This document shows, in pieces, positions 3,859-63,446 of a DNA stretch of 64,000 bases. Position 1 is the stretch's first letter. Each line of letters opens with the position of its first letter. Origin of the DNA: Bacteroidales bacterium (lineage in GTDB: Bacteria > Bacteroidota > Bacteroidia > Bacteroidales > B18-G4); NCBI GenBank assembly GCA_040775045.1, contig JAXGTH010000001.1, positions 1,117-65,116 of the forward strand. The letters run 5' to 3'. A model generated the notes under the pieces. The model was not told the origin of the DNA. It was given only the letters and a program-made list of their open reading frames with translations, and made no database searches. The position numbers were made by a program, and so were the translations under genes.

Positions 3859-4698
3859 CTAAATGCCTTCTTTTATTTTAGTGCCCGTGAGCAACTGGTC
3901 GACATTGTGAGGGATGTAATTTCTGATGATGTTGCCCACCATGTTCACATAATCCTGCCCCTTGACGGAGTACCTGCTCAGGCCTGCAGCCAGGGCGAGC
4001 GGTTCGATGGGTTTCTTTTCCTCCCTGAACTGCAGCCTTGCATCACGGAGGCCGCGATACGCATGCCCTGTATTCAGGATCCAGAGATAATCCTCTATAC
4101 CGGCCATCTCTGTCGGATAGGTCTTTACGTAGAACGCTGCGCTGTCGTTAGCCGCGGGCTTCACGCCGCAGCCTTCTGTATAGCAGTGCACGCCGAAATA
4201 ATTATTGCCTTCCCTGGCAAAATCGGAGCTGCCCCAGCCCGACTCTATGATGGCCTGTGCCATCACCAGGGTGGGAGGGATGATATCTGCCCTCTTGAGC
4301 AGGTGCGTGATGGCTTGTCCGACAGCAGCCGGCTGATAAGTTTCTGCCGGCTGCAGCGGATCCAGGCGGTACTCCTTCAGAAGGGCGTTGAGCTCTCCGA
4401 TCTGGCGCTCACTCAGCCCCTCATGTTCATCCAGGCTGTCGCTCAGGTCGAGAATGCGGTTGCGCTGGACAAGGATCTGGTTGTTTGCCGTGTGGATCTC
4501 GGGCAGGAACCTGGCAAGGAATCGTTTGTGGGATAGGGGGATCTCCCTGATCGTTGTGATCTTTTCTGCATCCACCGGCAAGGGATCGATGATCTCATGA
4601 CGGGGCGAAGGCCTGGCGCAGGAGATCAGCAGGACTGGTAGGATGAACAAAATACCCTGTTTAAATGTCCGTTGATAATGTGCACTGAATTTTTTCAA
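3859..4698 (-). CDS. Lipoprotein with mannosyl-glycoprotein endo-beta-N-acetylglucosaminidase (glucosaminidase/FlgJ-like) domain
   Basis: A lipobox-like 'LLISCARP' is present, along with 'AQAIIESGWGSSDFAREGNNYFGV'. The apparent start codon is TTG. Confidence 0.75.
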   Translation of the reverse strand: MKKFSAHYQRTFKQGILFILPVLLISCARPSPRHEIIDPLPVDAEKITTIREIPLSHKRFLARFLPEIHTANNQILVQRNRILDLSDSLDEHEGLSERQIGELNALLKEYRLDPLQPAETYQPAAVGQAITHLLKRADIIPPTLVMAQAIIESGWGSSDFAREGNNYFGVHCYTEGCGVKPAANDSAAFYVKTYPTEMAGIEDYLWILNTGHAYRGLRDARLQFREEKKPIEPLALAAGLSRYSVKGQDYVNMVGNIIRNYIPHNVDQLLTGTKIKEGI

Positions 4699-4716
4699 AA
4701 TGGCACGATTAAGTAT

Positions 4717-4724
4717 TAATTTTG
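4717..4724 (+). promoter_or_regulatory. Candidate -7 box TAATTTTG
   Basis: It matches TAnnTTTG and lies 64 nt upstream of ATG 4788. Confidence 0.3.
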
Positions 4725-4787
4725 GTTACAATAATAACTAAAATCACATTCGCAATATAACTTCAAAAAGAACGGGAAATTGTTTCC

Positions 4788-5660
4788 ATGTCAACAACTG
4801 ATCAAAATAAGGAGTTGAAGGCGCTTGTAAGCATGCTGGATGAACCGGACAGTTTGGTCTACGATCAGATAAGGTCCAGGATCCATGCCTTTGGCATGGA
4901 TGCCATTCCCGTGCTTGAGGCCAGATGGGAGGATTCGTTTGATCCCCTTTTGCAGGAACGCATCGAAGAGATCATCCACAGGATACATTTCGACGACCTG
5001 CAGGCGGCCCTTTCAAGCTGGGTACAGCTTGGGAACGACGATCTGTTGAAAGGATTCATGATGGTTGCCCGTTACCAGTATCCGGATATAAATGCGGAAA
5101 AGGTTATAAAGCAGGTAGGCCAGCTGGTGCAGGATGTATGGCTGGAGCTCAACAGTAGCCTGACCGCCCTGGAAAAGATCAAGGTCGTTAACCATATCCT
5201 TTTCGATGTGCACAAATACAAGGGCAACAAAAGCAATATCAAGAGCCCCGACAATCTTTACCTGAATACCCTCCTCGAGACCAAAAAGGGGAACCCGCTT
5301 TCGATAGGGATCCTATACATCATCATTGCCCGAAGCCTTAAACTGCCGGTGTATGGTGTCGACCTTCCCAACCATTTTGTGCTGGCCTATCTTGAGGATT
5401 TCCCGGGTAGCGACGAAAGTCCCGACCAGGTCAACGCCCTTTTCTATATCAATCCCTTCAACAGGGGAACATTGTTCACCCATAACGAGATAGAGGCCTA
5501 TATCCGGCAGATGAACCTGCCGCACAACGAGACCTATTTCAATCCATGCACCAACATCACGATCATCAGGCGGGTGTTCGATGAATTGATCGACCTGCAC
5601 GAGATGCTGGGGAATAAGGGTAAAGTCGAGGAGCTGAAGAAACTGGCTGCAGTACTCTAG
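4788..5660 (+). CDS. Transglutaminase-like / SirB1-family protein
   Basis: 'KGNPLSIGILYIIIARSLKLPVYGVDLPNHFVLAY' resembles the Transglut_core2/SirB1 N-terminal region. Confidence 0.6.
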   Translation: MSTTDQNKELKALVSMLDEPDSLVYDQIRSRIHAFGMDAIPVLEARWEDSFDPLLQERIEEIIHRIHFDDLQAALSSWVQLGNDDLLKGFMMVARYQYPDINAEKVIKQVGQLVQDVWLELNSSLTALEKIKVVNHILFDVHKYKGNKSNIKSPDNLYLNTLLETKKGNPLSIGILYIIIARSLKLPVYGVDLPNHFVLAYLEDFPGSDESPDQVNALFYINPFNRGTLFTHNEIEAYIRQMNLPHNETYFNPCTNITIIRRVFDELIDLHEMLGNKGKVEELKKLAAVL

Positions 5661-5664
5661 TTGG

Positions 5665-6264
5665 TCATTTCCTGTTGCCAAAAATGCTGCCGATGGTTCT
5701 CATGATGATGCTGATATCTTTGGCCAGCGATCGTTCCCGTATGTATTTGAGGTTGAGTTCGAGCTTGGCCGGCATGATCTCCCGGACATAGGTGTTTTCC
5801 GGATCCCGGCTGGCTGCAAGCATTTCGGGTTCATCAATATAACGCAGTGAGGCATAGTCGGTCAGGCCGGGCCGTACGCTTAATACCTTTTTTTGTTCTT
5901 CGTCGTAAAGATCCACATACTTCCTCACTTCCGGCCTCGGTCCCACGAAACTCATATGGCCTGCCAGGATGTTGAAAAGCTGGGGCAGTTCATCAAGCTT
6001 GGTTTTCCTGAGCAGCCTGCCTGCGCGTGTTACACGGGGGTCATTGCCACCGAGGGTGAGCAGGCCCCGGGTGTCGGAACCCGGTACCATGGTCCGGAAC
6101 TTGTACATCCTGAAATCGCGGTTACCCCTGCCGACCCTTATCTGGGAATAGACCATCCCGCCCCGCGAACCGGCCCATACCCACAAGCCAATGATCATGA
6201 ACAGGGGCAGGAGCAACAGGATGGCGAACAGCGAAAGGACAATATCGAAGACCCGTTTGATCAT
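5665..6264 (-). CDS. Polyprenyl-phosphate sugar-phosphate transferase (small PglC/WbaP C-terminal type)
   Basis: There is one N-terminal TM helix, and the bacterial sugar transferase motifs 'YKFRTM', '[18 protein letters not shown]' are present. Confidence 0.85.
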
Positions 6265-7475
6265 AGGCCGGTTTCTTCTTCAACCGATGAAACCACGGCA
6301 GAGATCACCTCATCAACCTGGGCATCGGTGAGATCGTAATAGACAGGAAGGGATATGACCCTGCTGAAGCTGTCGTGGCTTACCGGGTAATCACCGATCC
6401 GGTAACCTTCATTCTTATAAAAGCTCAGCAGTGGCAGCGGGATGAAGTGTACATTCACCGAAACCCCCCGCGAAAAGATCCTGCTGATGATGCGGTCGCG
6501 CTGCTCTTCGCCGATGCCTTTCACCCTGAGCAGGTACACATGGTAGGAGGAGTGCCTTGAAGGATCCTCATATGGCGGTACAATGGCCCACGGCTTCCCT
6601 GAAAATGCATGGCTGTAGCGGTCGAAGATGGCCTTGCGGCGAGGGATCATGTCATCGTCATAACGTTCGAGTTCCACGATGCCCATGGCCGCCTGTATGT
6701 CGGTCATATTGTATTTGTATCCCGGTTCGATCACATCGTATTTCCAGTTCCCGGCCTGTGATTTTGCCAGTGCATCCTTGGTTTGTCCGTGAAGGGATTT
6801 TATGCAGAGATAGTTGTAGATATCCTGGTTGCTGAAGGGCGCGGGCAGGTTAAGGCAGATGGCTCCCCCCTCGGCCGTGGTCAGGTTTTTCACGGCGTGG
6901 AAAGAAAATACCGTGATATCCGTCAGCATGCCTGTTTTCTTACCGTTCAATGCCGCTCCGACAGAGTGCGCCGCGTCGGACAGCACCAGGATACGGCCAA
7001 GTTTTTCCTGCTCGGGGCCCGAAGGGACGAACATTTTCCTGATGCCCTCTTCGGCCACCAGGGCATTGATCTTCTCATAGTCGCAGGGCAGGCCGGCAAG
7101 GTCAACGGGGACGATCACCTTGGTTGAAGGGCTGATGGCTTCGCGTATGCGGTTCACATTGATGTTGAAGTCGTCGCCGATGTCGGCCAGCACGGGCCTG
7201 GCACCGCAATGTATCACTACATTTGCCGTTGCGGAATAGGTATAGGCCGGAACGATCACCTCGTCGCCCGGGCCCACACCAAACCAGCGCAGCATGAGTT
7301 CCAGCCCCGACGAGGCTGAATTTACACACAAAGTGGCTTCGTGCCCGCAATAGGCACTGATCATTTTTTCGAACTTCTTGGTGCGCGGGCCTGTAGTGAT
7401 CCAGCCCGACCGAAGGGCGTCGCTGACCTCATCGATGATCTTCTCGTCGATGCGGGGAGGAGAAAAGGGTATCAT
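6261..7475 (-). CDS. DegT/DnrJ/EryC1/StrS-family sugar aminotransferase (PglE-like)
   Basis: Family motifs are 'SGWITTGPRTKKFE', 'DAAHSVGA' and 'FSFHAVKNLTTAEGG' (PLP lysine context). The gene overlaps the downstream transferase by 4 nt. Confidence 0.85.
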   Translation of the reverse strand: MIPFSPPRIDEKIIDEVSDALRSGWITTGPRTKKFEKMISAYCGHEATLCVNSASSGLELMLRWFGVGPGDEVIVPAYTYSATANVVIHCGARPVLADIGDDFNINVNRIREAISPSTKVIVPVDLAGLPCDYEKINALVAEEGIRKMFVPSGPEQEKLGRILVLSDAAHSVGAALNGKKTGMLTDITVFSFHAVKNLTTAEGGAICLNLPAPFSNQDIYNYLCIKSLHGQTKDALAKSQAGNWKYDVIEPGYKYNMTDIQAAMGIVELERYDDDMIPRRKAIFDRYSHAFSGKPWAIVPPYEDPSRHSSYHVYLLRVKGIGEEQRDRIISRIFSRGVSVNVHFIPLPLLSFYKNEGYRIGDYPVSHDSFSRVISLPVYYDLTDAQVDEVISAVVSSVEEETGL

Positions 7476-7484
7476 GTCAGTAAG

Positions 7485-8438
7485 TTATTTCTTGTAGGAT
7501 GAAAGGAAATCATTGATGTTCCTTTCCACACGCCCGACCACATCAGTGACATCCGCCCTGACGAACGTATCGCCGGTGATCTTTTCAAAAAGCTCAATAT
7601 AACGGTCAGAGACAGAGTTCACGAATTCATCAGGCATTTGGGGCATTTCCTGTCCCTTCTGTCCCATGAAGCCTTTCGACATCAGCCATTCCCTGACGAA
7701 TTCCTTGCTGAGTTGTTTCTGTTGTTCACCCCTGGCCTGACGTTCCTCGTAACCGTCGAGGTAAAAATATCTTGATGAGTCGGGGGTGTGGATTTCGTCG
7801 ATCAGGTAAATCCTGTCGCCGATCTTCCCGAACTCGTATTTGGTGTCGACGAGGATCAGCCCCATCTCCCTGGCTATTTCCGAACCCCTGCGGAAAAGTT
7901 CCCTGGTGTATTTATCGAGGAGCAGATAGTCTTCCTCGGTAACAAGCCCCTGCCTGATGATCTCCTCTGCCGAGATGTCTTCATCGTGCGCACCGTCGAC
8001 GGCTTTGGTGGTAGGCGTGACGATGGGTTCGGGGAAGGCCTGGTGTTCCTTCATCCCGTCGGGGATGGGTACGCCGCAGATCTCCCTTGCCCCTTTGCTG
8101 TATGTGCGCCAGGAACTCCCGGTAAGATAGCCGCGAATGATCATTTCCACGGGAAAAGGTTTGCAAAAGCGTCCCACCGTGACCATGGGGTCGGGTACCG
8201 CCAGTTTCCAGTTGGGAACGATATCGGCCGTGGCATCGAGGAAACGGGCTGCGATCTGGTTCAGCACCTGGCCTTTGAAAGGAATGCCCTTTGGCAGCAC
8301 CACGTCGAAGGCCGAGATACGGTCGGTAACGACCATCACCATCAACTCATCGTCGATATTGTAAACATCGCGTACCTTCCCCTTGTAAACGCTCTTTTGT
8401 CCGGGGAAATTGAAATCTGTCCGGGTAATAGTGTTCAT
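7485..8438 (-). CDS. purC: Phosphoribosylaminoimidazole-succinocarboxamide (SAICAR) synthase
   Basis: The product starts '[26 protein letters not shown]...DRISAFD'. I trimmed the start from the 397-aa ORF to ATG 8438 because the longer form overlaps the lipoprotein gene and contains the -7 box. Confidence 0.9.
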
Positions 8439-37504: not shown

Positions 37505-37867
37505 TCATCTGAACTCTTCTTTAATTCTTACGAGTACTTTATCAATATCGGCCAATTCCTCATTTTTGATCCTGATAATTTTTAGTCCTTTAGATTTCAA
37601 TATCAGATCACGTTTCTCATCCCTTGATTTTTGTTTTCGATGAATCGGGCCATCCAGTTCAATGACCAGTTTTTCCTCTGCGCAGTAAAAATCAGGGATA
37701 TAAAAGAAGTGGTTATTTCTTTTGGATTCATATATAATTGGGTGCTGTCGAAGAAACTTTTTCCCGCATAATTTCCTTTTTCGTAAAAATGACCAAAGAA
37801 ATTTTTCGTGTATGGTTTGTCGGCTTCTTAGCCGCCGCGATGTATTAATTATTTCATGATATTTCAT
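37505..37867 (-). CDS. DUF559 (Vsr-like endonuclease fold) domain protein
   Basis: 'RQTIHEKFLWSFLRKRKL.GKKFLRQHPI...YIPDFYC...KLVIELDG..H' is the DUF559 pattern. Confidence 0.8.
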   Translation of the reverse strand: MKYHEIINTSRRLRSRQTIHEKFLWSFLRKRKLCGKKFLRQHPIIYESKRNNHFFYIPDFYCAEEKLVIELDGPIHRKQKSRDEKRDLILKSKGLKIIRIKNEELADIDKVLVRIKEEFR

Positions 37868-37885: not shown

Positions 37886-37901
37886 TTATTATATTAATAC
37901 C
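37886..37901 (-). promoter_or_regulatory. Shared 16-nt upstream motif GGTATTAATATAATAA (minus-strand reading)
   Basis: It is identical to 45381-45396 and lies 19 nt upstream of the DUF559 ATG. Confidence 0.4.
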
Positions 37902-37920
37902 ATTTTTTGTGAAATGTCCC

Positions 37921-37954
37921 CCCTCCCTTCTGGAAGGGAGGGCCGGGGTGGGTT
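37921..37954. repeat. Right inverted repeat plus complete GC-rich hairpin
   Basis: The hairpin is CCCTCCCTTC-tg-GAAGGGAGGG at 37921-37942. GAAGGGAGGGCCGGGGTGGGTT lies at 37933-37954. Confidence 0.85.
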
Positions 37955-44978: not shown

Positions 44979-45353
44979 TCATCTGGTCTTGGTAACTATA
45001 GAACCGAATATTTTAGTCAGTTCCATTGCTTCCCTTACCAGAGATGCCCTTTCCATTTCAAGCATTTCATTTTCATACATATCCAGCAGGCGTAAAAAAA
45101 GCACACACTCCTTGGCTTCCTTCCTGCAAATCATGCTTCTGTACACGAAGTCCTTCCTGCTGATTGCCTCCCCAGCTTCAATATAATTGGCCGCGACAGA
45201 TCCTGAAGCCCTGATCAACTGCTTTCCGTCTTCAATGTTTGCCCTGGTCTTCATGATCTTCTTAAGGAATGACCTCACACTGATCGCAAACTTTTGCGTA
45301 CGTGCCTCAAGATCAAGTTTTCTCTCAGTTGTAATAGTATCCTTTTCTTCCAT
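44979..45353 (-). CDS. Four-helix-bundle protein (23S rRNA intervening-sequence protein family)
   Basis: 'LEARTQKFAISVRSFLKKI', 'QLIRASGSVAANYIEA' and 'F..R..ICRKEAKE' are typical of this family. Confidence 0.75.
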   Translation of the reverse strand: MEEKDTITTERKLDLEARTQKFAISVRSFLKKIMKTRANIEDGKQLIRASGSVAANYIEAGEAISRKDFVYRSMICRKEAKECVLFLRLLDMYENEMLEMERASLVREAMELTKIFGSIVTKTR

Positions 45354-45380: not shown

Positions 45381-45396
45381 TTATTATATTAATACC
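45381..45396 (-). promoter_or_regulatory. Shared 16-nt upstream motif GGTATTAATATAATAA (minus-strand reading)
   Basis: It is identical to 37886-37901 and lies 28 nt upstream of the four-helix-bundle ATG. Confidence 0.4.
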
Positions 45397-45469
45397 CAAA
45401 AATTGAAAAAGTCACACCCTAAACGAGATTTTTTTTGAACTTAAAGCCTTTGGCCATTTGATTTTTATA

Positions 45470-54857: not shown

Positions 54858-54915
54858 AGGCTTTTATGACATTAGCCTCCCTGCAGGATGACCGAAAAAC
54901 CTTCCTTCCGAAAAT

Positions 54916-54929
54916 TTTTTTGCAAAAAA
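54916..54929. promoter_or_regulatory. Perfect 14-nt palindrome TTTTTTGCAAAAAA in the amn/lanC divergent region
   Basis: Read directly. It is centred about 42 nt upstream of the lanC ATG. Confidence 0.3.
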
Positions 54930-54951
54930 GGTGCGACATTTTTGCATTTTC

Positions 54952-54961
54952 GGTATTAATA
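54952..54961 (+). promoter_or_regulatory. GGTATTAATA core of the shared cassette motif, 3 nt before the lanC ATG
   Basis: It has the same 10-mer and the same sense orientation as upstream of the DUF559 and four-helix-bundle genes. Confidence 0.3.
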
Positions 54962-54964
54962 GAT

Positions 54965-56194
54965 ATGGGGTGGAAGGTTTTTCTTCCTGAAAGGTTCTTC
55001 GAACCTGTGGAAAACAAGATCCATGAAATAGCTGGATCGGTCGGGGACTGTGTCCCGGAAGGGCCGGGATTGATGGGTGGAAAGGCAGGTTTGGCTTGTT
55101 TCTATGCCTGCTATGCCGACTGGACAGGGGACCGGGCCGCCGACGGGCTGGCAGCAGACCTGATTGGGCAGGCGCTCAATCCTGCTGCCGGCCGTTTTCC
55201 TTCCTTCAGCCATTCCGATGGACTGGCAGGCATAGCCTGGCTCATCCATGTCCTGGCAAAAGAGGGGATCCTAACACACGACGCTTCTTCCGTGTTTGAT
55301 TACCTTGATGGCCCGCTCTATGAGGCCATGATGGCCGAGATCAGGGCGGGGAATTATGATTTCCTGCACGGGGCTTTAGGCATTTCCCTCTATTTCCTGA
55401 GGCAAACGAACAACCGGAAATACCGGCTGTACCTTGCGGAAATGGTCAGTGTACTCGGGAATAATGCGGAACAGGATGACGCAGGCGGCCTGAAGTGGAT
55501 GTCTGTACTTGAGCCAGAATCCGGAAAAACAGGCTATAACCTGAGTTTGTCTCATGGCATGGCCTCGATCGTGATCATGCTCGCCAGGTTTATCCATGCC
55601 GGCATTTCTGTTACCGATTGCAGCGTGTTGCTTGCGGCTTTAATGAAGTACTTCGACCGCCAATGGCTTGACCCCGAAGAGCATCAGTCTTGTTTTCCGG
55701 CCTGGGCCATCGAAAGCATGGACGAACTTCATGCAAGCCGCCTGGCCTGGTGCTATGGTGATCCGGGGATTGGCCTGGCGTATTATGAAGCAGGAAAATG
55801 CCTGCAGGGAACCTCATATATGAGCCGTGGACTGGATATCCTGATGCGTTCTGCGGAAAGAAGGGATCCTGCCGACAATGGGGTGAGGGATGCAGGGATC
55901 TGCCACGGCGCTGCCGGTCTGGCGTTATTTTACAACATCCTTTATCAGAAAACCGGGTACACGGTCTTCGCTGAAGCTTCATTGCACTGGCTTGACGTTT
56001 GCCTGAACATGGCCGTGCACGATACCGGTATTGCCGGATATAAGAGTTGGTACCTGCCGGAGTATGGAGGTTGGAAGAACAATGCCGGATTACTCGAAGG
56101 CGCCGCAGGTATCGGGCTTGTGCTCTTGTCATTCATTCACCAGCGAAAGCCTGCATGGGCCGGTGGGCTGTTATTATCCGTTGAAAATGCATAA
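54965..56194 (+). CDS. lanC: LanC-like lanthionine cyclase
   Basis: 'LSLSHGMASI' (active-site His), 'AWCYGDPGIG' and 'GICHGAAGLALF' (Zn ligands Cys/Cys-His), and Gly-rich repeats 'GLMGGKAGL' and 'LLEGAAGIGL'. The start is set to ATG 54965 because the ORF-track 5' extension overlaps amn; ATG 54866 is not excluded. Confidence 0.85.
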   Translation: MGWKVFLPERFFEPVENKIHEIAGSVGDCVPEGPGLMGGKAGLACFYACYADWTGDRAADGLAADLIGQALNPAAGRFPSFSHSDGLAGIAWLIHVLAKEGILTHDASSVFDYLDGPLYEAMMAEIRAGNYDFLHGALGISLYFLRQTNNRKYRLYLAEMVSVLGNNAEQDDAGGLKWMSVLEPESGKTGYNLSLSHGMASIVIMLARFIHAGISVTDCSVLLAALMKYFDRQWLDPEEHQSCFPAWAIESMDELHASRLAWCYGDPGIGLAYYEAGKCLQGTSYMSRGLDILMRSAERRDPADNGVRDAGICHGAAGLALFYNILYQKTGYTVFAEASLHWLDVCLNMAVHDTGIAGYKSWYLPEYGGWKNNAGLLEGAAGIGLVLLSFIHQRKPAWAGGLLLSVENA

Positions 56195-58424
56195 ATCCAA
56201 AGACAGGGCATTATCAGTCGATGAAACCTTCATGCTGAGGGTGCCTTTCCTGCCCCTGAGCATACTGGGAGAAATATCGGATACGGCTGATATCGAAACA
56301 CTGCTCAGGAAATATTATTCCCTGCCCATGGTTGCCCGGGCCCTCTACCTGGCTTCACCGGATCTTTATGACCGGGCAAGGGAATGGCTTGGCAGCAAGG
56401 GATCATGCAGTGCGGACAATTCCAGGATCAGGAATTCGCTGCTGAAATATCTTATCAGGATGTCGTCGAGGTGCACCCCTTTCGGCATGTTTGCCGGCAT
56501 ATGTTCGGGGAGTCTTTCCGATGAGACGCGGATTGAAATTGCAGCCCCTGAAACCCATAGCATATTTACCAGGCCCGACATGCATTTTCTGTGCGGCCTT
56601 GCGTCGGCAATAAGCGGAACGGAAAAGATCCGCAGGCAGCTGTTTTATACCGTCAATACAAGCCTTTACAGGGTCGGTGACGAGTACAGGTATGTAGAAT
56701 ATTTCGTGGATGAAAACGGCCTGCGAAGTTACCGGCTCCAGAGCACTCCGCATACCCCGTATCTCGAACAGGTGTTCGGCAGGGCATCGAGGCCTGCCGG
56801 CATTGCTGAACTGGTGGATTCGCTTGGGATTTTCGGGCCCGACCATACCGAGGCTGAAACCTATGTGAGGATGCTGATCGATAACCAGGTACTTGTTTCG
56901 GACCTTGAACCCAATGTAAGTGGCACAGGGTTTTTTGAAAAGATCCTGGAAAAGACGCAGGAAGCCGGGGATGACAGCCTTATGCTGTTATCCAGTAAAC
57001 TGAATGAAATCCATGACCACGCCAAGGGGTGTGATCCTGAAGCAGGCATTGCCGGCTTTCGATCCCTGGAACGGGAAATCGAAAGAATGAATATCCCCTT
57101 TTCCCGCGGGACACTGCTGCAGGCCGACATGTGCATTTCCCACCATCATTGTTCCCTGTCGAAAGATATCAGTGATTCTTTGCTTGATGCCATGCCGCTG
57201 ATGATGCGGCTTGCTTCTTCACCCGGGCACAGCTTACTGAAAAATTTCAGGGAGAACTTCGTCAGGCGGTATGATGATGCGGAGGTTCCCCTGGCGCTTG
57301 CTCTTGACGCAGAAGCAGGCCCGGGTTATTTGCCGGAAGATATCATTGCAGGCGATTCCTCGCTGCTGCACGGATTAAGGCTGCCGGCCATGGGTAAGGG
57401 GGAAAAGACCATTCACTGGAATGATGCCGACCGAATGTTGTTGAGAAAGATGCAGGGATGCCTGCTTAACGGTGATCTGGAAATGGAACTTACCGAAAAG
57501 GATTTGCTTTCATTGCCCGGGCATCAACATCCTTTGCCTGATAGTTTTTCACTGATGGCACGTATCACGGGAAGAACGACCCCTGACAGCGGTAAACCGA
57601 TCATTCAAATCGTTTCCATGGGCGGAACAAGCTGTTCAAACCTGGCAGGAAGATTCTGCAATTATGATGACAGACTCAGGAAAGCCATTGAAAGGATACA
57701 CCGGGCCGAACAATCCCTTTACAGCGATTCCATACTTGCGGAGATCGTACACCTCCCCCAGCAAAGAACGGGCAATATTTTGATGCGGCCCGTGCTGAGA
57801 CCGTACGAGATCCCCTATCTGGCAAGCCCGGGCGTAAGACACGATCACACCATACCGGTTACCGACCTGATGGTATCGGTCAGCAGGGACAGGGTATTGC
57901 TGAGGTCGAAACGGCTTGATAAGTTCATCATCCCGAGGATGTCGAATGCCCACAACTTTTCGGTAGGATCACTGGCCGTATACCGTTTCCTGTGCGACCT
58001 TCAGGCGCAGGATGTATGCACCATGCCTGGATTCTCCTGGAATATCCTGGCGCAGGATGCGGTTTTCCTGCCCAGGGTCACGTTCAGGGAATTCATCCTG
58101 TGTCCGGCATGCTGGAACCTGGATCAGGACGAAGTCCGTGCTTTCAGGGATGCACGGACCGAAACTGAGAGGGCTGTGACCATGCGTACTATTCGCAGCG
58201 CATACAGTATCCCGAGATATGTACTTCTGTCGCATGGCGACAATGAACTCTGGCTCGACCTTGAAAATGAAGCATGTGTCGCAGTATTACAGGCAGAGAT
58301 GAAAGGCAGGCGGGATTTGCGCCTGCAGGAATGGCTTTATGAAGAGGACATGAAAGTTGTCCGCAGCCGGGATGGCGGCTACGCCAACGAATTTGTTCTC
58401 TTTTTTTATCAACAGGAGGTGTGA
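56187..58424 (+). CDS. lanB: Lantibiotic dehydratase, N-terminal (glutamylation) part of a split LanB
   Basis: The N-terminus 'ETFMLRVPFLPLSIL', its size (745 aa), and its position between lanC and the LanB C-terminal gene. ATG 56187 overlaps the lanC stop (ATGCATAA). Confidence 0.8.
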   Translation: MHKSKDRALSVDETFMLRVPFLPLSILGEISDTADIETLLRKYYSLPMVARALYLASPDLYDRAREWLGSKGSCSADNSRIRNSLLKYLIRMSSRCTPFGMFAGICSGSLSDETRIEIAAPETHSIFTRPDMHFLCGLASAISGTEKIRRQLFYTVNTSLYRVGDEYRYVEYFVDENGLRSYRLQSTPHTPYLEQVFGRASRPAGIAELVDSLGIFGPDHTEAETYVRMLIDNQVLVSDLEPNVSGTGFFEKILEKTQEAGDDSLMLLSSKLNEIHDHAKGCDPEAGIAGFRSLEREIERMNIPFSRGTLLQADMCISHHHCSLSKDISDSLLDAMPLMMRLASSPGHSLLKNFRENFVRRYDDAEVPLALALDAEAGPGYLPEDIIAGDSSLLHGLRLPAMGKGEKTIHWNDADRMLLRKMQGCLLNGDLEMELTEKDLLSLPGHQHPLPDSFSLMARITGRTTPDSGKPIIQIVSMGGTSCSNLAGRFCNYDDRLRKAIERIHRAEQSLYSDSILAEIVHLPQQRTGNILMRPVLRPYEIPYLASPGVRHDHTIPVTDLMVSVSRDRVLLRSKRLDKFIIPRMSNAHNFSVGSLAVYRFLCDLQAQDVCTMPGFSWNILAQDAVFLPRVTFREFILCPACWNLDQDEVRAFRDARTETERAVTMRTIRSAYSIPRYVLLSHGDNELWLDLENEACVAVLQAEMKGRRDLRLQEWLYEEDMKVVRSRDGGYANEFVLFFYQQEV

Positions 58425-59294
58425 ATGGAAACACGCAATCATTTTCCCGGGGGTGAATGGCTTTACCTGAAAATATACGGAGGCCATAAAACGCTGGAGA
58501 GGGCGCTTGTGGAAAAGTTGTGGCCGTTAAATGCGGAGTTCTTGGATAAAGGGCTTGCCAGACTATGGTTTTTCGTACGATATACAGACCCTGATCTACA
58601 CCTTCGATACCGCTTAAGGTTAAATGAAAATGCCTGCGATGAAGGATTGATCCGGGCAGTCAGGGAAGCACTGGAACCTTTTTTATCGCAGGGGCTGATA
58701 TGGCGCGTAGAGGTGGCAACCTACCGGAGGGAGATGGAACGCTATGGATGCCATACCATGGAATTTGCCGAGCAGCTGTTCTTTCATGACAGCCGGGCCT
58801 GCCTGGATTTTCTCCGGGGTGAAGCGGATCCGGTCGGTGATACCCGCTGGCTCTATGCCCTGGCATCTGCTGATGCCTGCCTTTGTGATTTCGGTTATGA
58901 CCTGCAGGCCAGGAAGGAGATCATGATGAGGCTTAACCGTGGTTATGGGACCGAATTTGGAAAGGATGGCACGCTGGCAGGACAAATATCTGAACGTTTC
59001 CGCTCCTATCGGGACATGATACAGGAAACCCTTGACCGGACATCGCATCATCCAATAAGCGCGATCCTGTCAAAACGCTCAGAGGCAAATGCAGATCCGG
59101 TAGAATCGATTAGAAAGACTTACACCTCCGGTGCTAAGGTGCCCGATATGGACGATCTGGTCAGCAGCATCATCCATATGTCGATGAACAGGATCTTCCC
59201 GTTCAACAACCGGCTGCATGAAATGGTCATCTACGACCTGCTATTCAGGTACTACAAATCGGCCCTCGCCAGGACCGGGAATATTGCGGGTTGA
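58425..59294 (+). CDS. LanB C-terminal (glutamate-elimination, SpaB_C / thiopeptide-type bacteriocin biosynthesis) domain protein
   Basis: 'GEWLYLKIYGG', 'WFFVRYTDPDLHLRYR' and 'Y.RE.ERYG'. Its ATG abuts the previous stop (TGAATG). Confidence 0.85.
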   Translation: METRNHFPGGEWLYLKIYGGHKTLERALVEKLWPLNAEFLDKGLARLWFFVRYTDPDLHLRYRLRLNENACDEGLIRAVREALEPFLSQGLIWRVEVATYRREMERYGCHTMEFAEQLFFHDSRACLDFLRGEADPVGDTRWLYALASADACLCDFGYDLQARKEIMMRLNRGYGTEFGKDGTLAGQISERFRSYRDMIQETLDRTSHHPISAILSKRSEANADPVESIRKTYTSGAKVPDMDDLVSSIIHMSMNRIFPFNNRLHEMVIYDLLFRYYKSALARTGNIAG

Positions 59295-59325
59295 GCCCAT
59301 TGCTACCGCCCTCCCGTCCATACTT

Positions 59326-59388
59326 CTCAGTACTCATATCTCAATACTCATATCTCAATACTCATATCTCAATACTCATTTCTCATGT
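59326..59388. repeat. Nine tandem heptamers (CTCAnnT), i.e. 14-bp unit ACTCATATCTCAAT x3 plus degenerate ends
   Basis: ctcagta ctcatat ctcaata ctcatat ctcaata ctcatat ctcaata ctcattt ctcatgt. The array lies inside the lan operon gap. Confidence 0.9.
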
Positions 59389-59434
59389 AACCATAATCCG
59401 CCTGATCGAGTATAAGGATAATTGCAGTATTATT

Positions 59435-61624
59435 ATGGCAAAGTTTCCATTTTATAAGCAGCTTGATGCAATGGATTGCGGTCCCAGTTGCCTTCGCATG
59501 ATCGCGAAGTACCACGGGCGCAATTACAGCGTGCAGACCCTGCGTGAGCGAAGCCATATCACACGTGAAGGCGTGTCGCTGCTGGGCACCAGCGATGCTG
59601 CCGAATCCATTGGCTTTCGGACCATGGGTGTGCGTGTCGGCTTGGATCAGCTTGCGAAAGAGTCGCCTCTGCCATGCATTGCCCACTGGAAACAAAACCA
59701 TTTTGTGGTGATTTACCGCATCACCCGGAAACATGTGCACGTAGCCGATCCCGCCCATGGCCTGATCCGGTATACCCGGCAGGAGTTCCTGGCCCAGTGG
59801 GCCAGCACGAAGTCGGAGGGCGAACCACAGGGGATCTGCCTGCTGCTGGAGCCAACACCTGATTTTTTCAGGCAGGAGGGAGAGGTCAGGGACAAGCGCA
59901 CTTTCCGCTTCCTGTTCTCCTATCTCAAGCCCTACGGGCGTTTTATTACCCAGCTGGTGCTGGGGATGGTCCTTGGTGCGTTGCTGCAGCTCATCTTCCC
60001 CTTCCTCACCCAGGCCATCGTCGATATTGGTATTGCCAACCAGGACCTTGGCTTCATCACCCTCATCCTGATCGCCCAGCTGGTACTTTTCATCAGCCAG
60101 GCCTCGGTCGAATTTATCCGGAGCTGGATATTGCTGCATATCAGCACCAGGGTGAATATTTCACTGATCTCCGATTTCCTGATCAAGCTCATGAAATTGC
60201 CGATAGGCTTTTTCGACAGCAAGATGATCGGCGACCTCATGCAGCGTATCGGTGACCATACGAGGATCGAGAACTTCCTCACGGTTTCCTCGCTCAATAT
60301 CCTGTTCTCCATGGTCACCCTGCTGATCTTCGGCATAGTGCTGGCCATATACAGCCTGGATATCTTCCTGATCTTCGTCATCGGCAGCGGTCTGTATATT
60401 GCCTGGGTGTTGCTCTTCATGAAAAAGAGGCGCGATGTCGACTTCAAGCGCTTCGCACAGATGGCCGACAACCAGAGCAACCTGATCCAGCTCATCACGG
60501 GCATGCAGGAGATCAAACTCAACAACTGCGAGAAACAGAAGCGCTGGGACTGGGAAAAGATCCAGGCCCGCCTTTTCAAGATAAACATCCGGGGCCTTGC
60601 CCTCAACCAGTACCAGCAGGCAGGGGCCGTGTTCTTCAACCAGACCAAGAACATCCTGATCATTTTCGTGGCTGCCGATTCGGTGGTGAGGGGCGACATG
60701 ACCCTAGGTATGATGATGGCCGTGCAGTATATCATTGGCCAGCTCAACAGCCCCATCGACCAGATGATCACATTCTTCCGCTCGGCGCAGGATGCCAAGA
60801 TCAGCCTTGAACGTCTTGGAGAGATCCACCAGCAGGATGAAGAGGAAAAGGCCGACGAGCCCAAGGTGGCCTCCCTGCCTGCCAGGAAAAGCATCAGCCT
60901 TCACGATTTGAGTTTCAGGTACGCAGGTCCGCAATCCCCGCCGGTATTAAAAAACCTGAACTTCGAAATCCCGGAGAAGAAACTAACTGCCATCGTGGGG
61001 CCCAGCGGGAGCGGCAAGACAACCCTGGTAAAGCTGTTGCTCGGTTTTTACCCTCCGGAGAGAGGAGAAGTCAAGGTGGGTGAACTCAATATCAGGAACA
61101 TTAATGGCCGCTACTGGCGCCAGCAGTGCGGGGCCGTCATGCAGGACGGTTTCATATTCTCCGATACCATCGCCCGCAACATTGCCGTAAGCGATGAATA
61201 TATCGACCGTGAGAATCTGCTTCATGCCGTAAATGTTGCCAACATCCAGGATTTTATCGAATCGCTTCCCCTTGCATACAATACAAAAATTGGCCAGGAA
61301 GGTATCGGACTGAGCCAGGGTCAGAAGCAACGTATCCTCATAGCGAGGGCAGTTTACAAGAATCCTGAGTACCTTTTCTTCGACGAAGCCACGAACGCCC
61401 TCGATGCAAATAACGAAAAGTTGATCATGTCGAAACTCAATGAGTTCTTCGAGGGGAAAACGGCCGTGGTGGTGGCCCACCGGCTCAGCACGGTGACCAA
61501 TGCCGACCAGATCATCGTGCTTGACAAGGGTGAAGTGGTGGAAAAGGGGACGCATGAAGAATTGACCCGCCTGAAGGGAGCTTATTACGAACTGGTGAAA
61601 AACCAACTTGAATTAGGCAATTAG
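59435..61624 (+). CDS. lanT: Peptidase-C39-domain ABC exporter (double-glycine leader-cleaving bacteriocin/lanthipeptide transporter)
   Basis: 'QLDAMDCGPSCLRMI' (catalytic Cys), 'HFVV', six TM helices, Walker A 'GPSGSGKTT', the signature 'LSQGQKQR' and 'LFFDEATNALD'. Confidence 0.9.
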   Translation: MAKFPFYKQLDAMDCGPSCLRMIAKYHGRNYSVQTLRERSHITREGVSLLGTSDAAESIGFRTMGVRVGLDQLAKESPLPCIAHWKQNHFVVIYRITRKHVHVADPAHGLIRYTRQEFLAQWASTKSEGEPQGICLLLEPTPDFFRQEGEVRDKRTFRFLFSYLKPYGRFITQLVLGMVLGALLQLIFPFLTQAIVDIGIANQDLGFITLILIAQLVLFISQASVEFIRSWILLHISTRVNISLISDFLIKLMKLPIGFFDSKMIGDLMQRIGDHTRIENFLTVSSLNILFSMVTLLIFGIVLAIYSLDIFLIFVIGSGLYIAWVLLFMKKRRDVDFKRFAQMADNQSNLIQLITGMQEIKLNNCEKQKRWDWEKIQARLFKINIRGLALNQYQQAGAVFFNQTKNILIIFVAADSVVRGDMTLGMMMAVQYIIGQLNSPIDQMITFFRSAQDAKISLERLGEIHQQDEEEKADEPKVASLPARKSISLHDLSFRYAGPQSPPVLKNLNFEIPEKKLTAIVGPSGSGKTTLVKLLLGFYPPERGEVKVGELNIRNINGRYWRQQCGAVMQDGFIFSDTIARNIAVSDEYIDRENLLHAVNVANIQDFIESLPLAYNTKIGQEGIGLSQGQKQRILIARAVYKNPEYLFFDEATNALDANNEKLIMSKLNEFFEGKTAVVVAHRLSTVTNADQIIVLDKGEVVEKGTHEELTRLKGAYYELVKNQLELGN

Positions 61625-61634
61625 TCAGAATAAT

Positions 61635-62969
61635 ATGGCAGAAGATACCCGGCATAAGACCATTGAATTCCGCAGTGAACCTGTTCAGGAGATACTGGGC
61701 TCGGTACCGTCGTGGATCATCAGGTGGGGAACCACCCTGTTCTTCGTAGTCGTGGCGCTGCTCATCATGGGGAGCTGGTTATTCAAATACCCCGAAGTGG
61801 TTCCCAACCTGGATATAGAAGTAGTGACCACACAACCACCCGCCTTTGTCGTGGCAAGGTCGACGGGAAAGATCAATGAGTTTTTCATCACCGATAAGCA
61901 AAAAGTGATGCAGGGCGACAGCATTGCCGTGATCGAGAATCCTGCTGATCATCATGACATGTTTTTCCTGAGGGATGAGATGCGCAGGTTTGGCAGGCTT
62001 CTGGATGAAAATGATGTCAGGGCGATTACCGGGTTCGATTTCATGAATAACCTGCAGCTGGGCGATGCCCAGGATGAATATGCCGATTTCCTCAAGGATT
62101 TCCTTGACCTGAAGAACTTTGTCGAACTTAATTACTACAACAAAAAGATAGCCACGATCGAGCAGCAGATCAGCGATTACAACCTCTACTACAATTACAT
62201 GTATACGCAGAAGCAGACCCTCGAAGAGGACTACAAGCTGGAGGCAGGCGATTACCAGCGTTACGAGGCACTTTACGACAGTAACGCCATTTCCCGCTCT
62301 GAACTCGACAACCTGAAAAGTGAGCTTCTGCAAAAGCAGCATGCCTATGAGGGTGCACGTACCAACCTGGCAAATACACAAATAAAGATCGAAGAATTGA
62401 GAAGTGATATTCTCGACCTGGGACTGCAATACGAAAAGGAAAAGAATGAGCTTGAACTGGCCATCAGGCGGTCGTTCAACAACCTCCAGGGGGCCATCAG
62501 CAAATGGCAGCAGGACTTCCTGATCGTTGCCCCGATAGAGGGAAGCGCAACCTTCAATAAATTCTGGTCGGAGAACCAGAACATTACGGCAGGTGAAAAG
62601 ATCATCAGCATTGTACCGGCCGATTCATCCAACATCATTGGTAAACTAACCATGCCCATCTACCGTTCGGGTAAGGTCCGCGTGGGACAAAAGGTAAATA
62701 TCCGGTTCGATAATTACCCTTATATGGAATTCGGGATGGTGACCGGGTACGTGGAGAAGATCTCGATCGTTCCGGCCGACAATACGTATGCCGTCGATGT
62801 TGCCTTTCCTGAAGGATTGCGGACCAACTACAATGTTGACCTGCCCTTCAACCAAAAGATGACCGGCAAGGCGGAGATCGTCACCCAGGACATCAGGTTG
62901 CTGACCCGGATCATCCGGCCGATCAGATCGCTGATACAGAACCGCTCAATGAGGTCGGTACAGGAATAA
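61635..62969 (+). CDS. HlyD-family membrane fusion/secretion protein
   Basis: An N-terminal TM helix, a long coiled-coil and a C-terminal beta-barrel-like region, directly after the ABC exporter. Confidence 0.8.
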   Translation: MAEDTRHKTIEFRSEPVQEILGSVPSWIIRWGTTLFFVVVALLIMGSWLFKYPEVVPNLDIEVVTTQPPAFVVARSTGKINEFFITDKQKVMQGDSIAVIENPADHHDMFFLRDEMRRFGRLLDENDVRAITGFDFMNNLQLGDAQDEYADFLKDFLDLKNFVELNYYNKKIATIEQQISDYNLYYNYMYTQKQTLEEDYKLEAGDYQRYEALYDSNAISRSELDNLKSELLQKQHAYEGARTNLANTQIKIEELRSDILDLGLQYEKEKNELELAIRRSFNNLQGAISKWQQDFLIVAPIEGSATFNKFWSENQNITAGEKIISIVPADSSNIIGKLTMPIYRSGKVRVGQKVNIRFDNYPYMEFGMVTGYVEKISIVPADNTYAVDVAFPEGLRTNYNVDLPFNQKMTGKAEIVTQDIRLLTRIIRPIRSLIQNRSMRSVQE

Positions 62970-62978
62970 GGTTGTCAC

Positions 62979-63446
62979 ATGATGCATGAACTCAATCTCC
63001 CATCGTATGATTTTCGTGTTCGAACGGAAGGCGGGAAGCCCAGGATCTTCGACGAGGTTCGGAAGAAATTCGTCGCCCTGACCCCCGAAGAATGGGTCAG
63101 GCAGCATTTTATCATGTTCCTCATTCATCACAGGTCTACACCCGCGGGACTCATCATCATGGAGAAGATCCTCACCATGAATACCATGACACGCCGACCG
63201 GATATCCTGGTCCACGACAGGCGCGGAAGGCCCCTGATGATCATTGAATGCAAAGCTCCCGGCGTGAAAGTAACACAGGAAACCTTCGACCAGGTAGCCA
63301 GGTATAATGCTGTGCTGCATGTGCCCTACCTGGTGGTGACAAATGGCATGGTGCATTATTGTTGCCGGATGGATTACCGGGATAATACCTTCCATTTCCT
63401 TCAGGACATCCCTGACTATAACGAGATCGCCTCCGTGGCCGATTAA
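62979..63446 (+). CDS. HsdR_N-type (PD-(D/E)xK fold) small protein
   Basis: 'TPEEWVRQ', 'RPDILV' and 'MIIECKAP' are typical of the stand-alone 'type I restriction enzyme HsdR N-terminal domain' proteins of Bacteroidota. Confidence 0.7.
   Translation: MMHELNLPSYDFRVRTEGGKPRIFDEVRKKFVALTPEEWVRQHFIMFLIHHRSTPAGLIIMEKILTMNTMTRRPDILVHDRRGRPLMIIECKAPGVKVTQETFDQVARYNAVLHVPYLVVTNGMVHYCCRMDYRDNTFHFLQDIPDYNEIASVAD

Follow-up and report, generated by a model that had tools for sequence, protein, structure and literature searches.

A class I lanthipeptide synthetase locus of Bacteroidales and its probable substrate, encoded in trans under a shared promoter-like element

Introduction

What does a complete set of lanthipeptide-modifying enzymes act upon when no substrate gene lies beside it? 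This question is raised by five genes at 54965-62969 of a 64,000-nucleotide stretch of DNA from a Bacteroidales bacterium (contig JAXGTH010000001.1; the whole stretch is called here the window), which encode a LanC cyclase, a LanB dehydratase in two parts, a C39-peptidase ABC exporter (LanT) and an HlyD-type adaptor. A first reading of the letters (the original prediction) had described them as an inserted and apparently orphan operon. In Bacteroidota, class I clusters with a split LanB, LanC, a C39-ABC exporter and HlyD are known, and their precursors carry a Gly-Gly leader of the type L.(L/F).K.....L (PMC7268733, PMC9680876), given for this phylum as LxLxKx5L...GG by Walker et al. (PMC7268733).

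From comparison of the locus with its relatives, we consider it probable that the five genes are an intact split-LanB class I synthetase and exporter, vertically inherited at a fixed site, and that an ordinary Gly-Gly-leader substrate is encoded elsewhere on the chromosome beside a sigma factor module and co-regulated with the enzymes through a shared promoter, probably by that sigma factor.

Results

The five genes appear to form an intact enzyme set

The genes of the locus are as follows.

54965-56194, + strand: lanC, lanthionine cyclase, 409 amino acids (Pfam LANC_like, E 4.7e-35)
56187-58424, + strand: lanB1, N-terminal part of lanB with the glutamylation domain, 745 amino acids (Pfam Lant_dehydr_N, E 3.6e-145)
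58425-59294, + strand: lanB2, C-terminal part of lanB with the glutamate-elimination domain, 289 amino acids (Pfam Lant_dehydr_C, E 2.4e-61)
59435-61624, + strand: lanT, C39-peptidase ABC exporter, 729 amino acids (Pfam Peptidase_C39, E 2.6e-37; ABC_membrane; ABC_tran)
61635-62969, + strand: hlyD, HlyD-type periplasmic adaptor, 444 amino acids (Pfam HlyD_3, E 1.8e-9)

All three modification-enzyme profiles (LANC_like, Lant_dehydr_N and Lant_dehydr_C) matched, and the Pfam domains and motif alignments agree on the class I lanthipeptide set with split LanB that had been proposed. The split itself is shared by most homologues. The adaptor scored 86 bits against the NCBIfam family type_I_hlyD, which is under the cut-off of that family. 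As had been described, lanC and lanB1 overlap (by 8 nt, ATGCATAA) and the stop of lanB1 and the start of lanB2 abut as TGAATG at 58422-58427.

The retention of the LanC zinc ligands and the LanB catalytic residues was borne out by alignment to NisC, NisB, MibB and the LanB structure 9g04, and that of the C39 Cys and His by their motifs. LanC carries SHG at residue 196, WCYGDPG at 262 and CHG at 313, aligned by HMMER with the NisC motifs, whose residues we take to be His212, Cys284 and Cys330/His331. LanB1 retains the glutamylation motifs R..R.TPFG, RPD, QAD and GRF, and LanB2 the elimination motifs FFVRYTDP..HLR, ERYG and HM..NR, both aligned to NisB, MibB and 9g04. When 17 LanB1 sequences of the syntenic clade described below were aligned, 97 columns were invariant. 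The C39 domain of LanT contains QLDAMDCG and HFVV (the Gln, Cys and His motifs), and its ATPase the Walker A sequence GPSGSGKT. The five genes thus look like a catalytically intact class I lanthipeptide enzyme set with a C39-ABC/HlyD exporter.

No precursor gene is found beside the enzymes

The absence of a precursor from the window, already noted in the original prediction, held in every search. A scan of all window open reading frames (ORFs) of 25-110 codons for a GG, GA or GS followed by a Cys- and Ser/Thr-rich tail returned only shadows of real genes, and the listing of all intergenic ORFs of at least 20 codons across the 64 kb contained no credible precursor. Strict and relaxed searches for the LxLxKx5L...GG leader in the six-frame window and in the clade loci gave no match, and the positive controls worked. 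A generic Bacteroidota leader hidden Markov model (HMM) and a family-specific HMM gave best E-values of 0.58 and 10 in the six-frame window; on positive controls, the precursor HMMs gave 1e-4 to 1e-34.

A substrate gene just past the 3' edge had been suggested. Contigs of the same strain (99.3-99.9% identity to the window) cover the 4.7 kb beyond nucleotide 64000 and contain housekeeping genes only (DUF3822, an RsmD-like methyltransferase, DUF2795, Cob_adeno_trans and an ABC ATPase), with no precursor. The gap upstream of lanC, said to hold only ORFs of 11 codons or fewer, does contain a 23-codon ORF, MTEKPSFRKFFCKKGATFLHFRY, at 54888-54959, although it is not conserved as an ORF. It was rejected as a precursor because it overlies the promoter-like element described below, its start codon is not conserved in relatives, and it has neither leader nor GG site. 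When conserved small ORFs were sought all against all among 12 sequences (ten clade loci, L002 and the window), nothing emerged but shadows antisense to GYD, DUF2795 and the promoter region. Also discarded were small genes that relatives carry in the variable insert (83, 68, 145 and 218 amino acids), as they encode an antitoxin-like protein, membrane proteins and a lipoprotein.

The same holds for the clade as a whole, since no precursor was detected within 10 kb of the lan locus in nine clade loci from GTDB genomes and in locus L006. Among more distant LanB loci (the best 80 of 414 were inspected), 44 of 70 have between one and six obvious precursors beside the enzymes by a simple leader-plus-core search; they include Aquimarina, Dokdonia, Maribacter and Prolixibacteraceae, and many are ordered lanC-lanB1-lanB2-lanT-hlyD.

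A near-invariant promoter-like element abuts lanC

The region upstream of lanC contains a promoter-like feature.

54925-54964, + strand: promoter-like element AAAAAGGTGCGACATTTTTGCATTTTCGGTATTAATAGAT, abutting the lanC ATG, near-invariant in the syntenic clade, 58.7 bits with a position weight matrix (PWM)

The sequence AAAAAAGTGCGACATTTTT-N4-TTTYGGTATTAATAGATATG is almost invariant right 5' of lanC in every clade locus, whereas the remaining intergenic region is unalignable and LanC itself is only 51-73% identical across the clade. The element precedes lanC in 16 locus records. Metagenome contigs of the JGI collection were scanned for GNGACNNTTTNNNNNTTTNGGTANTAATA, which gave at least 120 matches; 115 distinct instances are found among the matches listed, to which the counts by gene type given hereafter refer, and the PWM was built from 111 metagenome instances. 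The fuller consensus is aaGTGtGACATTTT-N4-TTTTgGGTATTAATAgaTA, with TA conserved at +31/+32, and the element can be written as aaGTGyGACATTTT-N4-TTTTsGGTATTAATAgaTA for lanC, precursor and sigma genes.

Among these matches, the ATG begins at a conserved A in all six lanC genes and in many other genes, the pattern expected of a promoter for leaderless mRNAs. The lanC transcript is therefore probably leaderless, with its predicted start at the A of the ATG at 54965. The spacing is conserved by gene type: the element lies 3 nt before the ATG in 6/6 lanC, 25-34 nt in precursors, 13-15 nt in radC and 23-26 nt in comM. In the window, which contains about 50 genes, three instances of the element occur, and none in shuffled windows, which argues that the element is not the general promoter. 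It does not fit well as a sigma-70, a sigma-54 or a Bacteroidetes TTTG/TAnnTTTG promoter. Neither the DNA upstream of lanC nor the full window nor 16 loci with the motif gave an Rfam match at threshold.

The two other copies in the window stand before small genes. The second, at 45386-45417 (- strand; 43.4 bits, with zero expected by chance), sits 33 nt 5' of a gene at 44979-45353 (- strand) for a 124-amino-acid four-helix-bundle protein (TIGR02436 / 23S_rRNA_IVP), which relatives such as L006 lack at this intergenic site. A weaker third copy at 37888-37926 (- strand; 9.1 bits), with A's replacing T's in the spacer, is found upstream of a gene at 37505-37867 (- strand) for a 120-amino-acid DUF559 endonuclease-like protein.

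The same element precedes stand-alone precursor genes

In addition to at least six lanC genes, the element precedes at least ten stand-alone small precursor ORFs, for example MKSKDTNKKLEFKKETIARLGEQQLNSIHGG-TEGTGPSVQIANQCTLTYETKGPKFTCNVVICKQPTKS, so that lan genes make up 16 of the 115 instances. Six members of this precursor family were tested against the NCBIfam model NF038153 ('class I lanthipeptide', cut-off 22) and scored 29-43 bits. A profile of ten precursors retrieved 52 homologues, 46 of which carry the Pfam domain PF28317 Lant_leader_dom. The leader, MKxKKxxRKLEFKKETIARLGEGxMxGxYGG, is of the Gly-Gly type and of NCBIfam type lant_leader_L1a, and the core of about 35-45 residues contains three Cys (..ANQCT..KT.G...TCNAVLCKT..). 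Six precursors that were reached by protein homology alone (L211-L215 and L218; L219 encodes the same peptide as one of them) also carry the element 25-34 nt before their ATG, and the element stands before lanA in at least 16 instances.

The distributions of this precursor family (called here family A2) and of the enzymes are complementary in the loci inspected. Stand-alone family-A2 precursors with enough flanking DNA have no lanB or lanC within up to 10 kb, the family is never found beside lanBC, and the lan loci of the clade are never found beside a precursor. Both occur together on contig_3984 (CAWCAB010000002.1, 1,228,958 bp). On this contig, lanC of the syntenic locus lies at about 62.6-63.7 kb and the precursor P0131 at 815,585-815,794, about 750 kb away; out of 38 positions, the two upstream elements differ at one. 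Since lanC, the precursor gene and the sigma gene described below carry the same long promoter, the dispersed parts would be switched on together. For the location of the substrate, which had been placed either in trans or beyond the 3' edge, this precursor favours the first option, and the second is excluded for the next 4.7 kb. It also tells against calling the machinery an orphan, as a syntenic relative has a matching precursor under the same promoter. We infer from the relatives that the organism of the window has such a precursor and that its enzymes would act on a family-A2 peptide.

The precursor adjoins a sigma factor module

On every contig of sufficient length, the precursor gene adjoins a convergent operon with the order sigma factor, protein of about 270 amino acids, TPR-CHAT protein and S41/PDZ peptidase, the outer flanks of which vary between loci. 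The sigma-70-family protein has about 190 amino acids, matches Sigma70_r2 with 26 bits and resembles the extracytoplasmic function (ECF) type. The protein of about 270 amino acids has one membrane helix and is a putative anti-sigma factor, and both the TPR-CHAT protein (about 980 amino acids) and the S41/PDZ peptidase (about 555 amino acids) have lipoprotein-type signal peptides. In three independent loci, the sigma gene is preceded by the element, in one of them with A's for T's in the spacer.

Autoregulation is typical of ECF-type sigma factors. Because the sigma gene itself carries the element, we infer that this sigma factor reads it. There are precedents both for an ECF sigma factor with a TPR-CHAT anti-sigma factor (PMC11506125) and for ECF control of a class I lantibiotic (PMC4973701).

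The locus has long occupied a fixed chromosomal site

In the window, Pfam identifies the neighbours of the locus as holA with a PNP_UDP_1 gene before lanC and an HSDR_N_2 gene with a GYD gene after hlyD, and the GC content is not atypical. The best LanB homologues on matched contigs are only 46-47% identical, yet they have the same neighbourhood. The conserved order is purL, SDR and/or AMP-ligase, holA, PNP, lanC, lanB1 and lanB2, then lanT, hlyD, HSDR_N, GYD, a 198-amino-acid gene and DUF3822. In all, 14 distinct syntenic loci were found, from uncultured Bacteroidales or Bacteroidota (L006, L012-L019, L022, L101, L108, L160 and L197; L209, which appears to be the L015 contig, and L008-L011, which duplicate L014 and L016, are outside this count). 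Nine come from a scan of one genome per GTDB species and are all from Bacteroidales or Bacteroidota metagenome-assembled genomes (MAGs), the closest with 60% LanB identity, and the metagenome element scan added at least four further distinct loci. The nine MAGs are JBDLIJ01, JAIOSQ01, JABMQZ01, JAOZTN01, CAWCAB01, JAZBOU01, JAVVEM01, CAZASJ01 and CAZHYA01. The same neighbours across a clade with 41-60% LanB identity argue that the lan locus is an old, vertically inherited resident of this site and not the recently inserted accessory module that it had been taken for.

The proteins of the locus differ in their rates of change. With the closest relative (L022) left aside, identities are 88-89% for LanT (in eight clade loci), 73-78% for HlyD, which is always paired with lanT in the clade, 78-86% for purL, 82-88% for PNP and 66-71% for holA, compared to 51-62% for LanC, 41-46% for LanB1 and 43-45% for LanB2. 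In distant lan clusters of the same gene order, LanT is likewise 57-68% identical where LanB is 33-36%, which suggests that a slow LanT and a fast LanB are a property of these proteins and not a sign of decay. Within the species, there were too few differences for dN/dS. In L022, the tblastn matches to lanB1 and lanT (3979-6209 and 7214-8037) are each split over two frames, as pseudogenes or errors of a co-assembled MAG would be.

Two transcription units are adjacent in the window

The five genes had been read as one tightly coupled operon, a view that the relatives do not bear out. In several of them, lanC-lanB1-lanB2 and lanT-hlyD are 0.7-5 kb apart, separated by inserts with a toxin-antitoxin pair, an M1 peptidase or a methyltransferase on the opposite strand. 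This separation, together with a promoter-like element before each block, suggests two transcription units that are merely adjacent in the window. The remaining features of the locus are the following.

59387-59416, + strand: second conserved promoter-like element, GTAACC-N17-GTATAAG, 5' of lanT (from the clade comparison)
59325-59385: tandem repeat in the lanB2-lanT gap, 4.4 copies of the 14-bp unit TCTCAATACTCATA (Tandem Repeats Finder score 108, 95% matches)
54894-54905 and 54972-54983: inverted repeat of 12 nt, perfect, with arms GAAAAACCTTCC and GGAAGGTTTTTC, the second within lanC codons 3-7; it brackets the lanC promoter
62979-63446, + strand: HSDR_N_2 (PD-(D/E)xK-like) protein gene, 9 nt 3' of hlyD (Pfam HSDR_N_2, E 7e-38)

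Across nine clade loci (the window, L006, L012, L015-L019 and L022), conservation upstream of lanT is confined to the blocks GGTAAC(A/C) and AGTATAAG, with 16-17 nt between them, and this element may be a second ECF-type promoter. In all clade loci that extend far enough, the HSDR_N_2 gene stands after hlyD, and it may be co-transcribed with the exporter.

The repeat said to fill the internal gap is indeed present, with a unit of 14 bp in place of the heptamer proposed. Its copy number varies within the species, with four units in the window and two in L001 (3148-3259; 99.3% identity), a 28-bp difference. Intergenic regions of the clade are rich in heptamer-based tandem repeats (GTGTTGA, CAACCAA and GAGTATT types) which differ between species at the same site (L012, L015-L017, L019 and L006, upstream of lanC and lanT; 59325-59385 in the window).

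In L013 and L014, the two arms of the inverted repeat have changed in matching fashion (CCTCC/GGAGG), and the upstream arm is missing in L101, L108 and L197. We rejected the lanC upstream region as a structured RNA, as variation in relatives lends the inner hairpin no support and the outer 12-nt pairing has no upstream arm in several of them. If transcription starts at the ATG, this outer pairing also lies outside the transcript, which counts against the RNA-structure reading.

The element also precedes genes of competence type

Outside lan loci, the element precedes 32 four-helix-bundle (TIGR02436) genes as well as GIY-YIG, DUF559, PDDEXK_3, ORF6N and RAYT genes. It further precedes at least five radC, at least four comM (Mg_chelatase/YifB) and at least three ssb genes, a comEC and a comEA-like gene, which were confirmed by Pfam (Competence with DUF4131, HHH_3, Mg_chelatase, RadC and SSB). 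These genes stand on metagenome contigs (L091-L210, for example L191, L185, L092, L146 and L099) that are not tied to lan-locus genomes, and no gene of the comEA, comEC, comM, radC or ssb type is found in the 64-kb window.

Between the element and GIY-YIG genes (L093, L100, L134, L143, L150, L184 and L190), a conserved untranslated stretch of about 100 nt with GGGAGGTCCTTCGTC...GTCCTCAGGATGACCGGT palindromes was observed; it resembles repetitive extragenic palindromic (REP)-like elements and has no Rfam match. A RAYT (Y1_Tnp) gene that adjoins the precursor in L211 also carries the element.

Discussion

The explanation that we favour would link a synthetase to a distant substrate in the following manner. 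An envelope signal, acting via the TPR-CHAT, S41 and membrane-protein module, would free the sigma factor, which would then transcribe the precursor gene and lanC-lanB1-lanB2 along with the operon that encodes it. LanB1 would glutamylate Ser and Thr of the core using Glu-tRNA, and LanB2 would eliminate the glutamate. LanC would close up to three thioether rings onto the three Cys, and LanT would cleave after the Gly-Gly, as found in the leaders of the relatives' trans precursors, and export the peptide with HlyD.

Several observations weigh against this explanation. The precursor of the window organism itself was not found: the 64 kb contain no precursor homologue and no homologue of the sigma/CHAT/S41 module, and none of five contigs with family members (P0135, P0149, P0144, P0124 and P0133) nor the listing of cluster members comes from one of the samples known to hold this organism, which are SRR27584544, SRR27584553, SRR27558887, JGI 3300010350, ERZ27257475 and ERZ795048. 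The same-contig link comes from one MAG contig, so that misassembly is possible. The element is unlike the published Bacteroidetes primary-sigma consensus and the typical ECF consensus. It also precedes many unrelated genes, and its sharing indicates co-regulation at most, not the pairing of an enzyme with a substrate. Finally, the precursor core is fairly conserved while LanB and LanC are fast (41-62% outside L022), which is not the pattern of tight co-evolution.

The element could instead be a common promoter or a mobile promoter cassette, in which case its presence before both lanC and the precursors would be coincidental and the precursors would be served by a different lan locus. It does stand before at least ten unrelated gene types, of which the commonest are small four-helix-bundle genes (32 of 115) and the GIY-YIG, DUF559 and RAYT genes, which behave as scattered cassettes; the inspection of the best 80 of 414 LanB loci leaves room for second lan loci in the same MAGs. 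We nevertheless regard this as unlikely. Three instances in 64 kb are too few for a general promoter, the position of the element is conserved at orthologous genes across species, lan genes are a recurrent part of the instances listed, and no family-A2 precursor stands beside any lanBC among the loci inspected.

Quite unlikely, in our opinion, is a truly orphan machinery whose precursor has been lost and whose enzymes are in decay or now serve an unconventional target, such as a larger protein or a peptide without a recognisable leader. This would agree with the lack of a precursor within 10 kb of the clade loci examined, with a LanB/LanC identity of 41-62% compared to 66-89% for the flanking genes, and with the frame breaks in lanB and lanT of L022, the closest relative. 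Against it stand the catalytic motifs, all of which are kept, the 97 invariant LanB columns, the maintenance of the genes at one site over deep divergence with an almost invariant promoter, and the matching precursor under that promoter on the same contig of a syntenic relative; the ratio of slow LanT to fast LanB is moreover also seen in distant clusters with precursors nearby. That a precursor lies nearby after all, just outside a window which stops 1 kb past the locus or as an overlooked small or unusual ORF such as the Cys-, Ser- and Thr-containing one at 54888-54959, is highly improbable given 54 kb upstream and 4.7 kb downstream with no candidate and an ORF that coincides with the element, forms no conserved ORF family and has no leader or GG.

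Coming back to a substrate encoded in trans, the locus can be set beside known systems. Like the pinensin (PinB1/B2), Pedobacter Ped15, Chryseobacterium and Runella clusters, it has a split LanB, LanC and a C39-ABC exporter with HlyD, and its gene order lanC-lanB1-lanB2-lanT-hlyD is that of Dokdonia, Maribacter and other loci. Unlike pinensin- and Pedobacter-type clusters, which are patchily distributed and of whose kind 44 of 70 adjoin a precursor, the loci of the syntenic clade have no adjoining precursor and occupy a fixed chromosomal site. The enzymes are thus an ordinary member of the split-LanB class of Bacteroidota; what is new is the dispersed, promoter-linked organisation with a sigma/TPR-CHAT/S41 module. 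A precursor within the cluster, as is customary in class I lanthipeptide biosynthesis, is lacking in the window, and an NF038153-type precursor is present in trans in the syntenic relative.

A great distance between enzyme and precursor, seen here in the syntenic relative, recalls the prochlorosins of marine cyanobacteria, with ProcM and many distant ProcA genes. Precursors of this kind escape mining that is limited to a neighbourhood of seven genes either side (PMC7268733). The relatives' system works in the same way without being one of the prochlorosins: its enzymes are LanB and LanC, and neither LanM nor Nif11/NHLP leaders are found. Prochlorosins are made by a single class II LanM from Nif11-type leaders with dozens of diverse cores, whereas the window type has a class I split LanB with LanC, lant_leader_L1a leaders in the relatives, one precursor per locus so far and a fairly conserved core.

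As to regulation, microbisporicin is reportedly controlled by a sigma/anti-sigma pair, MibX/MibW, with a common promoter motif before several lan units and the sigma gene. The likeness to the clade studied here, with a sigma and a putative anti-sigma factor linked to the precursor and a shared motif before lan units and the sigma gene, is clear; microbisporicin is actinobacterial with all its units in one cluster, whereas here the units are about 750 kb apart, TPR-CHAT and S41 lipoproteins are present, and the regulon reaches beyond lan genes. In Myxococcus, DdvS/DdvA combine an ECF sigma factor with a membrane protein and an extracytoplasmic TPR-CHAT module thought to trigger regulated proteolysis (PMC11506125). 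The TPR-CHAT part of DdvA is fused to the anti-sigma domain, and in the relatives studied here TPR-CHAT forms a lipoprotein of its own, with an S41/PDZ peptidase next in the operon. The targets of DdvS/DdvA are CBASS and CRISPR, from which the target genes of the element differ.

In streptococcal competence, a GG-leader peptide is exported by the C39 exporter ComAB, the sigma factor ComX acts on its box, and bacteriocins are co-induced. The Bacteroidales genes resemble this by a peptide with a GG leader, export through a C39-ABC protein, a sigma factor and a single type of promoter before ssb, radC, DNA-uptake and peptide genes, and differ from it in the phylum, in unrelated sigma factors and in a peptide that is a lanthipeptide. 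The genes comEA, comEC, comM, radC and ssb form the core of competence regulons in other phyla. The precursor core contains none of the lipid II-binding motifs quoted in PMC7268733, and its conservation between species is no less compatible with signalling than with antibiotic action. It is possible, though doubtful, that the lan operon belongs to a competence-like regulon as one of its arms, in which a sigma factor released by the TPR-CHAT/S41/anti-sigma module would read a long, often leaderless promoter and co-induce DNA-uptake and processing genes, small nuclease and four-helix genes, the precursor and the synthetase. If so, the lanthipeptide would be either a pheromone that the sigma module senses, closing a loop of autoinduction, or a toxin that kills kin and so supplies DNA, in parallel with the coupling of competence and bacteriocins in streptococci.

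Because mining tools restrict their view to the few genes that flank LanB or LanC, the whole lineage would score as having no precursor. Here a conserved promoter, instead of gene proximity, ties a class I synthetase to its likely substrate, which offers a way to pair dispersed genes of ribosomally made peptides modified after translation (RiPPs), and a defined peptide family can now be tested with these enzymes. No account of competence regulation in Bacteroidales was found in the literature searched, and the element points to a first candidate regulon and sigma factor for the DNA-uptake genes of this order. If the link to competence genes is true, the coupling of peptide export to DNA uptake would extend outside Firmicutes.

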